Below, in pieces: positions 18,777 through 40,038 of a DNA stretch of 64,000 bases; positions within the stretch are counted from its first letter, which is position 1; every line of letters begins with the position of its first letter. The translations under genes were made by a program, and so were the position numbers. This DNA comes from Waterburya sp. Lineage in GTDB: Bacteria; Cyanobacteriota; Cyanobacteriia; Cyanobacteriales; Xenococcaceae. The notes beneath the pieces are model-generated. The model was not told the DNA's origin. It made no database searches and saw nothing but the letters and a program-made list of their open reading frames with translations. Location: the NCBI GenBank assembly GCA_965217895.1, contig CBDCJV010000002.1, positions 1,696,001-1,760,000 on the forward strand, given 5' to 3'.

Positions 18777-20256
18777 GGTAGGGCTGTTTCATTCTAGAGC
18801 TAAAGTGCGGTAAATTGATATAAAACCTAATTTAACCGCTCAATAACTTTAAAAAACTTTGATAAAAGCTTAATTGACTATTTGAAACAAATACCTGATG
18901 AGCGAAAAGCAGGTGAATGAATGAGCATCTCAGTATACTCACAATAGTCAAGGTCAATGGATTGCAATTGATGGCAAAAGTTTGAAAAATACTGTCAACG
19001 ACTGTTATGGACAACAGCAAAACTTCGTCATGATGGTTTCGGCTTTGACTCATGAAGGCGGGGAAATTTTAGGCATAAAAGTTAGGGAAAATAAGAAATA
19101 AAGTGAGATTGTCGCCGTGCAAGACTTATTAGAATTGCTGCATTTAAAAGGAGTGGTGTTCACGATGGATGCTCTACATTGTCAAAAAAAACAGTCTCAG
19201 CAATTATCGACAGTGGTAATAACTACCTAATTGTGGTTAAAAGAAATCAAAAAACATTACATCGGCAAATTGAGCGGAGGAAATGCGTGGGTTTCCCGCG
19301 CTTATTCCACTCCGCTGTTGAATTTCAAGCAACAAGTACAAAGGCGATTAGTTGCTTTGAGCAGATCGAGAAGACGAGAAATCGACTAACTCATCGAACT
19401 GTAGAAGTATTGGCTCCTCCATCAAACATTGATTCTCAATGAGTTGGAGTTCATAGTATCATCAAAATTTTCCGTTCGCGAACAAGAGGTAATCACGATT
19501 ACGAATCGGATTCGGCGACTTATTATATTAGTTCTTTACCCAACTCCTTCGGAGTTAAGTAGCAAGTAGCAGCCGCTCCACGCGGCTCGACTTTCCTTCG
19601 CAAAGGCGGCGAACGACCCGTTCGCGCAGATAGCAATTAAGAAAAACTCCGAAGTTGGATATGCAGCCTCTTCATTGATGAGGAAAAGGTGAAAAAATAA
19701 TTCAACTCTTGAATACATGCGGGCAAGCCCTTTGTCTGACACAGGAGCTATCGCTCCATGTCGTCGTCTTCGACGACTTTGCAAGCTTTGCTTGCTGTGG
19801 CAGAGGTTGAACTTGCAGACGCGCTTCGCGTCTGGCCGTTGCGGAGCAACGTCGGCAGCCTCCAGGCTGCGCTACTTGTTATCTGCTACTTGTGAACAGC
19901 AACTTCTTGGCTTATTCCCCAAGGTATTGGCCGACATTGGGGTATCGAGAATCGTTGGCATTGGGGAGGCACTCAATACGGCGACGCAGGTTCGCCGTAT
20001 TGAGTGCCGTTTAAGGATGTCGTAACGAAAGAAGATAACAGCCCTCAACTTCACGGCAAAGCATCCACAAACATCTCTTTGATTAAAAGTTGGGTTATTA
20101 ACCTACTGAGAGTTCATGGTTTCGATTCTATGACTGAGGCAATCAGTTATTTAAGCCATAATTTGCCATTATTACTTTCTTTGTGTCACTGATAGGTGTA
20201 GTGAATAGATTTATTCGCGATCGCATCTTCTATTTTGAGAATGAAACAGCCCTACC
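18777..20256 (+). mobile_element. ISAs1-family element, copy 1 (transposase pseudogene)
   Basis: 19-bp TIR GGTAGGGCTGTTTCATTCT / AGAATGAAACAGCCCTACC. Fragments WIAIDGKSLK, MDALHCQKK, VKRNQKTL, YYISSL, RHWGIENRWHW and KDVVTKED. Start codon mutated to ATA; internal deletion, stops and insertions. Confidence 0.9.
19541..19897. other. Structured multi-hairpin insert within the ISAs1 transposase (copy 1)
   Basis: Interrupts YYISSLP|ATSW. GC-rich chain of more than 10 short hairpins; the same insert is present in copy 2 at about 37511-37864. Confidence 0.8.
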
Positions 20257-37045: not shown

Positions 37046-39990
37046 GTGCGCCCGTTAAACCAGAATCTGCTCAATCAGAATCTTAGAAGACATCTAAAAA
37101 ATTACTTTCTTACAACCTAATCTCCTAATTTCGCCCCCCCGCCCCCAAGTTTGGGGTAGGGCTGTTTCATTCTCTAAAAAAGAAATGCGATCGCGAATAA
37201 GTATATTTACTATTCCTATCAATGGCACAAAGAAAGTAATAATGGCAAATTATGGCTTAAATAACTGATTGCCTCGGTCATAGAATCGAAACCATGAACT
37301 CTCAGTAGGTTAATAACCCAACTTTTAATCAAGGAGATGTTTGTAGATGCTTTGCCGTGAAGTTGAGGGCTGTTATCTTCTTTCGTTACGACATCCTTAA
37401 ACGGCACTCAATACGGCGACGCAGGTTCGCCGTCCGTACCTCCCCAATGCCAACGATTCTCGATACCCCAATGTCGGCCAATACCTTGGGGAATAAGCCA
37501 AGAAGTTGCTGTTCACAAGTAGCAGTAGCGCAGCCTGGAGGCTGCCGACGTTGCTCCGCAACGGCTAGACGCGAAGCGCGTCTGCAAGTTCAACCTCTGC
37601 CACAGCAAGCAAAGCTTGCAAAGTCGTCGAAGACGACGACATGGAGCGATAGCTCCTGTGTCAGACAAAGGGCTTGCCCGCATGTATTCAAGAGTTGAAT
37701 TATTTTTTCACCTTTTCCTCATCAATGAAGAGGCTGCATATCCAACTTCGGAGTTTTTCTTAATTGCTATCTGCTATTTGCACACGCTGGAGCGTGTCGC
37801 CATCGCGAAGCGATGTCGGCGTTCTCCAGAACGCGCTACTTGCTACTTAACTCCGAAGGAGTTGGGTAAAGAACTAATGTAATAAGTAGCCGAATCCGAT
37901 TCATAATTATGATTACCTCTAATTCCCGAACGGAAAATCTTAATCACACTATAAACTCCAATCCAGCAAGAATTAAGATTTAGTGGAGGCTCAAATACTT
38001 CTACAGTTCGATGAGTTAGTCTGTTTCTAGTTTTTTCCGACTGCTTAAAGCGACGAATCGCAGTCTTATTGAGTGTTTGAAATTCTATTAGAGAAATGCA
38101 ATATCTTTCTCACTTTGTTTCTTATTTTCCCTAACTTTTATGCCTAAAATTTCCCCGCCTTCATGAGTCAAAGCCGAAACCATCATGACGAAGTTTTGCT
38201 GTTGTCCATAACAGTCGTTGACAGTATTTTTCAAACTTTTGCCATCAATTGCAATCCATTGACCTTGACTATTGTGAGTATACTGAGATGCCCATTCATT
38301 AAATACTTGAGTTACTGCCTCATAGTCTAAGCTCATCATTACCCTTCTCATTGTCGAATAAGATGGAACTCTAGCTTGTGGGATTTTGAGCGTTTCAATT
38401 AATTGACGGCGATGCCGTTCGACAAATCTGCCCAAACCTCGATATCCCCAATAACCGCTCATTATGCCTAAAATCGTTATCAATAATATCAGCCACAAAG
38501 AATGCCTTCGACCACCTGCTTTTCGCTCATCAGGTATTTGTTTCAAATAGTCAATTAAGCTTTTATCAAAGTTTTTTAAAGTCATTGAGCGGTTAAATTA
38601 GGTTTTATATCAATTTACCGCACTTTAGCTTTAGAATGAAACAGCCCTACCAGGTGTTGGGGGTAAAAGCACTTCCCCTTCGGTAGAGATTGGTCTTCAA
38701 TCCGAAAAGCGGGGATAAAAGCGGTTCTGACTGGAAGTCTAATCTGGTTCACCGCAAGCAAGAAACCCATGGGTAGCGAAAGCAAAGTATCCTCAAATTC
38801 CGTTACAAACAAATAGCCCAAAAGACTGATAGGCTATTGCCAAAAGGCAACAGGGCAAAACAACAGACATTAAAATATCATCTTTTAATGTTCAACATCC
38901 AAAACCCTCGGAACATAGGATTAGTAAACATCGTTAGTCTGAAACAGCAAAAATAGACTATTGGCTGTAGCCAAAAGGCAATAAATCTAGCTGATTTATA
39001 ATTGTTTATTTCTAAATCCACACCAGCTATAGATTTCGGTGGAAGTTTACACCCTAAAGGTTCCAACCAACGGATATTCGGAACGAGGAAACCCCTCCAT
39101 AACTCTCAGCAATGGTCGAACTTGTTGAGTAGTCAATTAAGACGCAATATCTCTAGAAATAGAGGTTATAGAGGGAGTAGGATTCGGTAAAAAGCTAATG
39201 CTCGTATGTAATGTATGAGATATGCCCACGTACCGACTGTAATTAGGAAGATAGTGAACAAGTAAGCGTAAATATGTCTAAAACTGATTTAAAACAATTA
39301 AATACAGTGGAATGGAACGAGATTGATTGGCGAAAAGTCGAGAAATCTGTTTTTAAGCTCCAAAAGCGAATCTATCAAGCCAGCAAAGATGACAATGTAC
39401 GAAAGTTAAGAAGGAACGTCCTCAAGGAGAATAAAAAATCTCTCTCCCTTATTAGATACGCAGACGATTTCTTGATTATCCATGAAAACCTGGACGTAAT
39501 TAAAACTTGTCAAGAATTAATAGGACAATGGCTCTTGGAAATAGGATTAGAACTCAATCAAGAAAAAACCAAAATTGCACATACCCTCAATAACTACGAG
39601 GATAACAAACCAGGGTTCGATTTCTTAGGGTTCAACATTAGACAATTCCCAGTAGGAAAATACCAATCAGGTAAGAATACCAACGGCGAAAATCTAGGGT
39701 TCAAAACGATTATCAAACCATCAAAAGAAAAGGTAAAAGAACATTACCGCAAGCTAGCCAATATAGTAGACAACCTTAAGGCTGCACCGCAGCACGCACT
39801 GATTTCAAAACTTAACCCAGTGATTAGAGGATGGTATAACTACTACAGAACAGTTTGCAGCAAAGAAACATATTCCAAAATGAATCAATTGCTGTTCTAC
39901 AAACTTATTAAATGGGGATATCAAAGACATTCTAACAAGAGTAAAACTTGGTCTAACAATAAATACTGGCACACAATTGGTATGAATAAC
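37046..39990 (+). mobile_element. Defective group II intron (interrupted by ISAs1, 3' end missing)
   Basis: 5' GTGCG at 37046. AACCAGA/TCTGGTT and TCAGAATC/GGTTCTGA pair across the IS. Intron-like motifs CGGAACGAGGAAACCC and AAGCTAATGCTCGTATGTAATGTATGAGATATG precede the RT ORF. No domain V/VI seen. Confidence 0.72.
37155..38651 (-). mobile_element. ISAs1-family element, copy 2 (transposase pseudogene)
   Basis: Same 19-bp TIRs as copy 1. The N-terminal ORF 38088-38585 is intact (PDERKAGGRRH, PSYSTMRR, IAIDGKSLK). It has an internal deletion and the same structured insert and C-terminal fragment as copy 1. Confidence 0.9.
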
Positions 39991-40038
39991 TTAGTTAGTT
40001 GTTTCGGCTACTTGTTTTATCGTTTTACCCGTCGATAG
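39274..40038 (+). pseudogene. ltrA: Group II intron reverse transcriptase/maturase with large in-frame internal deletion and 3' truncation
   Basis: N-terminal WNEIDWRKVEKSVFKLQKRIY is joined directly to LIRYADDF, then GFDFLGFNIRQ and X-domain LNPVIRGWYNYY. RT motifs 1-4 and the HNH domain are absent. Confidence 0.88.

Follow-up and report, generated by a model that had tools for sequence, protein, structure and literature searches.

Three-hairpin cassettes of a Pleurocapsa-type cyanobacterial genus sit in place of about five base pairs of target DNA

The small dispersed repeats SDR1-8 of Nostocaceae, reportedly described by Elhai and co-workers in 2008, are said to be 21-27 nt long and to keep their structure by compensatory change. 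They reportedly occur in heptamer arrays, in MITEs and nested in themselves. SDRs were not found outside Nostocaceae (PMC5861425), and the insertion point of SDR5 is exact, falling between the third and fourth bases of HIP1 (PMC4390886). The movement of very small structured cyanobacterial repeats has been unexplained since the SDR work. In fungal mitochondria, double-hairpin elements (DHEs) are described as short, GC-rich, multi-hairpin and potentially mobile (Paquin et al. 2000, via PMC10085805), and the GC clusters of yeast mitochondria as undergoing merging and shuffling of units and having 2-3-nt target duplications (PMC4478555).

The window considered here, meaning the whole analysed stretch of 64,000 nucleotides from a Waterburya sp. 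(contig CBDCJV010000002.1), contains four copies of a gene-less cyanobacterial DNA element of 52-57 bp, in which a three-hairpin shape is kept while the letters vary. Coordinates and letters of all four are as originally predicted, and a descriptor scan of the genome returned the same coordinates. In the family orientation, read with the G-hairpin first, cassette A1 (19571-19625) and cassette A2 (37782-37834) lie on the minus strand, and cassette B lies on the minus strand at 19817-19870 and on the plus strand at 37530-37583. The proposed common triple-hairpin layout holds for all four, except that the middle hairpin of A1, whose middle 21 nt are flipped, contains one mismatch (C.C). The hairpin order first given for A1 required correction, as its "hairpin 1" belongs to the other class of outer hairpin and A1 is opposite to A2. 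No Rfam family matched the window at gathering score, so the cassettes match no Rfam structured RNA family, and the short heptamer runs are not reported by Tandem Repeats Finder.

The cassettes are housed in two copies of a carrier MITE. The first (19540-19896, plus strand; about 357 bp, with a heptamer array at each end) contains A1 and B, and the second (37512-37865, minus strand) contains A2 and B, with one cassette in each heptamer array of each MITE. The carrier has 23 copies in the source genome (G000), which terminate in GTGAA without target duplication and always lie 3' of TTAC. This placement 3' of a fixed tetranucleotide resembles that of IS200/IS605-type elements, whereas Y1 matches in the source genome are only weak. 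The MITE is carried in turn by a broken ISAs1-family insertion sequence, at 18777-20256 (plus strand) and 37155-38651 (minus strand); in the latter, an N-terminal ORF (38088-38585) matches NF033564 and PF13808. Such ISAs1::MITE composites number eight in the source genome, and MITE-less ISAs1 alleles are present in public contigs. The second ISAs1 copy looks mosaic, with an upstream part that matches a divergent MITE-less allele, and is adjoined by a group II intron reverse transcriptase fragment (39274-40038). The first contains a 48-nt insert (19270-19317) that is missing from other public-contig alleles and is read as another mini mobile element. A 45-nt hairpin insert in ISAs1 (19966-20010) is likewise missing from other alleles; its two copies in the window carry the loop in opposite orientations.

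Under a general grammar, the descriptor scan found 52 cassettes in the source genome and none in each of five shuffles. The grammar consists of a G..C hairpin (16-17 nt), CGA, a middle hairpin (13, 15 or 17 nt), GCG and an A..T hairpin (16-17 nt), with junctions that allow both orientations of the middle (CG-A/C before the middle hairpin, G/T-CG after it). To avoid circularity, 162 contexts were chosen on the middle hairpin and junction letters alone; both outer hairpins were paired at five or more of six positions in 146 of them, against a chance expectation of 0.0006. In five of the 16 misses the first hairpin contains a second, nested cassette, two are likely mis-parses at nested junctions, and in the remaining nine an outer hairpin is weak or disrupted. 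The 146 contexts contain 111 distinct sequences and 84 arm triplets, with lengths of 52-57 bp and precise ends (first base G and last base T, each in 110 of 111). The absence of further genomic copies and of covariation had been named in advance as what would speak against a mobile element; instead, the 52 copies are accompanied by compensatory pairing.

Pairing was counted by script over 133 distinct sequences, the number reached once later loci had been added. Only 35 of 2261 stem cells are not Watson-Crick, two of these being G.T on the strand read, and several stem positions display all four Watson-Crick pair types. The near-absence of G.T pairs means that the stem pairing fits DNA better than RNA. 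The flipped middle unit (CGC..TCG) occurs in 45 of the 133 sequences and at many sites, so the orientation of the A.G mismatch is not required. A single strand is predicted to fold into three abutting hairpins, and when the CGA strands of A1 and A2 are folded as DNA, the hairpins are predicted to close into a four-way junction (z between -2.2 and -3.7 over six folds). This junction would form when the flanks pair; flank pairing exceeds that of shuffles only at positions 4, 6 and 8, with the first three positions not significantly above them, and does not demonstrate a need for the junction. Cassettes nest within cassettes, and the source genome also has collapsed alleles, joined via two similar loops, and a few degenerate copies. 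The same genome carries GTAG-tagged REP-like repeats at about 45 sites (e.g. C2:3521370), whose 16-nt core hairpin is the G-hairpin of A1; sequence likeness suggests exchange between the two families. A second three-hairpin arrangement, with linkers CA and GATCT, was seen in MITE variants at C2:723191, 2109982, 4116173, 4960826 and 5170406.

Where the element lies, about 5 bp of target are missing and nothing is duplicated. An empty counterpart was found for 51 of 118 flank contexts, the empty alleles coming largely from paralogues or other species rather than from a direct ancestor. Among the 31 non-heptamer contexts the gap is 5 in 20, 4 in three and 6 in five, thus 4-6 in 28, with outliers at -3, 8 and 17; the contexts are not all independent, and when independent non-heptamer events are counted by eye, about 13 of 17 show a gap of 5. 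Heptamer contexts give a gap of 5 modulo 7 in 16 of 20 cases, and insertions of a cassette into a cassette a gap of 5 in four of four. In one orthologous pair, the source genome is filled (C2:4086842) and G020 is empty; the cassette replaces 5 nt, and the flanks are nearly identical. Empty sites have none of the three hairpins. A comparison of filled and empty alleles had been suggested by the original prediction; both were found, and they support mobility as well as the replacement of about 5 bp.

The targets range from heptamer arrays, IS ends and other hairpin repeats to further cassettes and coding genes. They share a weak C-N5-G bias, with C before the replaced bases in 35 and G after them in 37 of 49 site clusters (background 0.195). 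The bias is the same whichever strand is read, which is what a symmetric staggered cut would give. The heptamer setting with GC on both sides, seen in the window as proposed, is not a defining property of the family and represents one target class; the GC..GC flanks arise because the 5 nt between two GCs are replaced. A 2-nt direct repeat flanks just 8 of 49 clusters and is explained as heptamer phase. A two-base target duplication (GC..GC, CT..CT) fits the heptamer sites, fails at others and is overturned by the empty sites. Three further candidates were rejected. For GATT duplication within stems, or stems templated by the target, the empty site of L230 had other letters and L251 (gap 4) was ambiguous. 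Replacement of hairpin loops does not hold, as nested insertions displace arms and junctions as often as loops. Self-targeting via base pairing gave nothing outstanding in 216 flank-to-stem tests (best p 0.007, uncorrected). At L244 and L258 (G013 and G442) a cassette occupies the same site of an apparent gene, with a net gain of 48 bp that is in frame by inspection, and the two cassettes differ by both-arm changes and a flipped middle. The source genome has no clear GC skew.

A1 and A2 had been placed in otherwise identical DNA and taken as a case of stem rewriting, and neither statement survives. The A2 allele has one extra heptamer and the upstream ISAs1 DNA diverges (88% identity over a 979-nt alignment, with mismatches concentrated upstream). 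The two are different, oppositely oriented cassettes, the middle of A1 being flipped. Across the 23 MITE copies, the left array is empty, collapsed, or occupied by A1, A2, B or two further cassette types. A2 is present in seven of the eight ISAs1::MITE composites; the eighth is the first window locus, which has A1 and a MITE almost identical to a free A1-bearing MITE at C2:337666. The contrast is most simply, and probably, explained by gene conversion between MITE alleles.

Cassette swapping and stem rewriting do find support elsewhere, in module exchange and in-place stem change at other shared sites. Eleven of 81 same-orientation site families contain 2-12 different arm triplets, and within these 11 there are 42 extra Watson-Crick pair types versus 15 non-pairing types. 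One multi-copy host in G444 presents all four combinations of first and middle hairpin and all four of middle and last, with five triplets listed. Inverted loops, flipped middles and stems that extend into the junction are frequent. Template switching creates and repairs hairpins (PMC8794818), and the in-place changes match it together with short gene conversion. Exchange of modules at the junction is possibly performed by the mobilising enzyme.

The element is very probably mobile. Its precise ends, together with gaps that cluster at 5 in targets unrelated to one another, argue for an enzyme with fixed geometry. The reading put forward here, to which we give about an even chance, is that of a 52-57-bp three-hairpin element that replaces about 5 bp and is likely inserted by a trans-acting enzyme reading the folded strand and not the letters. 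Such an enzyme would recognise the shape of the folded strand and cut both target strands 5 nt apart to leave 5' overhangs, a geometry deduced from the footprint only. The two 3' ends would receive the element by joining or would prime its copying; the 5' overhangs would then be lost, producing the deletion of about 5 bp. Stems at an occupied site may later change through template switching during replication, giving two-arm changes and flips of the loop or the middle, and through gene conversion over short tracts between copies, and most copies of the source genome would have spread passively within the MITE and ISAs1. A bolder version is tentative and falls below an even chance, namely that the cassette is a minimal transposable DNA of a new class, a folded 54-bp junction swapped for 5 bp by a transposase or recombinase that possibly exchanges hairpin modules.

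A target-site deletion could also be left by a group II intron-type reverse transcriptase (RT) that copies the cassette from RNA and primes at a staggered break, that is, by target-primed reverse transcription with deletion. In LINEs, a 5'-overhang staggered cut with 3'-primed insertion yields such a deletion (PMC6895275), and it is the footprint expected of this route. Matches to PF00078 (RVT_1) occur in 37 of the 39 genomes of the genus, eight of them in the source genome, and some cassettes lie in or near RT genes. However, RT presence does not separate positive from negative genomes, as illustrated by G433 with 22 matches and no cassette; G.T pairs are nearly absent; and both ends are precise, with neither 5' truncations nor tails. 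This route is considered unlikely.

Insertion might otherwise proceed with no dedicated enzyme, through template switching or microhomology-mediated patch repair that copies the folded cassette into single-stranded structured targets. The frequency of repeats, hairpins, IS ends and other cassettes among the targets agrees with this, as does the widespread occurrence of template-switch signatures (loop flips, middle flips and stem extension), and the C before and G after the target are also the commonest flanks of the donors. One base of microhomology per side, however, should not yield exact ends and a gap-5 peak in unrelated targets that include coding genes, and the patchy, bursty distribution is easier to explain by the gain or loss of some factor than by core replication. 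Enzyme-free insertion is for these reasons quite improbable.

True cassettes were found in 14 of the 39 genomes of the genus, at approximate copy numbers of 70 in G444, 52 in the source genome, more than 35 in G019, 14 in G023, more than 10 in G440, seven in G020 and 1-3 elsewhere. On a putA tree, cassette presence requires seven changes and 85 of 500 shuffles do equally well; this tree covers 30 of the 39 genomes, omits nine for which no locus was returned (the positives G009, G013 and G440 among them), and labels as negative G017, which was later shown to carry a variant with a 13-nt middle. As this variant was initially missed, negatives are limited by the search pattern. A tight pattern matched four of 400 other genomes of the phylum, none of them paired, and a looser pattern applied to 401 genomes of the order returned no multi-copy paired family outside the genus among the matches listed, 49 more lying outside the listing. 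Six of the best-looking matches at the level of the order were examined; one is a true single cassette in another family (G455) and five are not cassettes. A GTDB-wide scan gave mostly unpaired GC-rich chance matches among those listed. Viral contigs and plasmids each gave no match, and metagenomes one true cassette. A true cassette also occurs in a record named as an uncultured Pleurocapsa sp. (L096).

These scans bear on the idea that the cassette is a composite of described Nostoc-type SDRs, for example a 21-nt SDR nested between two small hairpins. The middle unit of 21 nt is inside the size range reported for SDRs, and the heptamer and MITE hosts and self-nesting agree with what SDRs are said to do. 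The middle unit alone, however, is not above chance in the source genome, and all three hairpins are missing together from empty sites; in the 401 order genomes, the matches listed include no paired middle unit with several copies outside the genus. SDRs themselves were not found outside Nostocaceae (PMC5861425). A composite origin is extremely improbable.

The original prediction had described a structure-conserved, sequence-variable mini mobile element without its own enzyme, and the family scan, the pairing, the empty sites and the lack of an autonomous parent bear this out; in the source genome, no half-cassette flanks an ORF. It had proposed correlating presence with candidate enzymes (HUH/RAYT, RT, recombinases); Y1/RAYT, RT and IS110 do not track the cassettes. 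Among 70 ORFs neighbouring cassettes in relatives, chosen from 109 cluster representatives, no recurrent family was found, and no transposition intermediates were seen in assembled contigs.

The likeness to REPINs raises the option of an element moved by an HUH Y1 transposase (TnpA-REP/RAYT or IS200/IS605 TnpA). Y1 insertion is not known to delete target bases, whereas about 5 bp are lost where the cassette inserts. The pair of inverted 16-mer palindromes with a spacer between them does recall REPINs (PMC3116915), and HUH enzymes are described as forming 5'-phosphotyrosine links and free 3'-OH ends (PMC8266576). One outer hairpin variant is the core of the GTAG-tagged repeat, and the carrier MITE has the placement noted above. 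GTAG, a feature of the foot of REP/REPIN hairpins, nevertheless adjoins the first hairpin in just 3 of 49 site representatives, all from heptamer arrays, and the junctions are not C|T. Matches to PF01797 (Y1_Tnp) are weak in the source genome (best 7e-6), absent from G020 despite its seven cassettes, and abundant in the cassette-free genomes G432 and G441 (41 matches in the latter). A Y1 mechanism is very improbable. Non-autonomous elements of IS110 have a fixed core dinucleotide at both ends, cause no target loss and occur where an IS110 gene is present. The cassette differs on each count, with no fixed core, loss of target, and no PF01548 (IS110) match in G444 for about 70 cassettes. Divergent IS110-like proteins of 400-470 aa are encoded in the source genome (C2:2845720 and 3923021), and similar weak matches occur in G019, G020, G023 and G017, not in G444.

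In the literature searched, which covered few subscription papers, there was no description of such an element or footprint, and no report of a bacterial enzyme by which a cargo defined by its shape is put in place of target bases. If true, the insertion of shape-defined cargo by target replacement would be a new transposition chemistry. The family offers several handles, namely exact ends, invariant junction letters, natural variation comprising more than 100 sequences and a constant loss of 5 bp from the target. From these, taken together, follow a predicted cut geometry and a defined 54-nt substrate that pull-downs and mobility assays could use.

As SDRs are reportedly characterised, the cassettes resemble them in being very small, gene-less and cyanobacterial, in compensatory structure, in their heptamer and MITE hosts and in self-nesting. 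They differ in being 52-57 bp long with three hairpins inserted as one unit, where SDRs, compared here by description only, are said to measure 21-27 nt. They are multi-copy only in the Pleurocapsa-type genus g1, with one copy in another family (G455), in contrast to the Nostocaceae range given for SDRs (PMC5861425). Unlike SDR5 (PMC4390886), none of the 49 site-cluster flanks is a split HIP1, and about 5 bp are replaced at C-N5-G-biased sites. Judged by the SDR description, the features of size, range and HIP1 insertion are all lacking.

The comparison extends to other elements. DHEs and GC clusters are likewise short, GC-rich, multi-hairpin and potentially mobile, with an enzyme known for neither side (PMC10085805; PMC4478555); the cassette, by contrast, lies on a bacterial chromosome, has three hairpins and fixed 3-nt junction motifs, and loses about 5 bp of target where GC clusters duplicate 2-3 nt (PMC4478555). 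REPINs share two inverted short palindromes around a spacer, non-autonomy and a folded single strand as likely substrate (PMC3116915; PMC8266576), whereas the cassette has neither a GTAG tag nor a C|T junction, its stems vary greatly, and no Y1 gene is linked to it or tracks its presence. R2-type non-LTR insertion has the same target-site deletion footprint of a 5'-overhang cut and 3'-primed insertion (PMC6895275); the cassette, known here from DNA alone, differs in having no ORF, a length of 54 bp, a bacterial host and no sequence-specific site. Against MITEs, it has no terminal inverted repeats (the left end reads G, the right end inwards A, and the arms are unrelated) and, with a gap of 5 at empty sites, no target-site duplication. 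By analogy, the cassette works like the Nostoc SDRs and the fungal double-hairpin elements, as small, gene-less and structure-conserved DNA. The family is a genuine and new variant among the very small mobile repeats, and its footprint is unusual.
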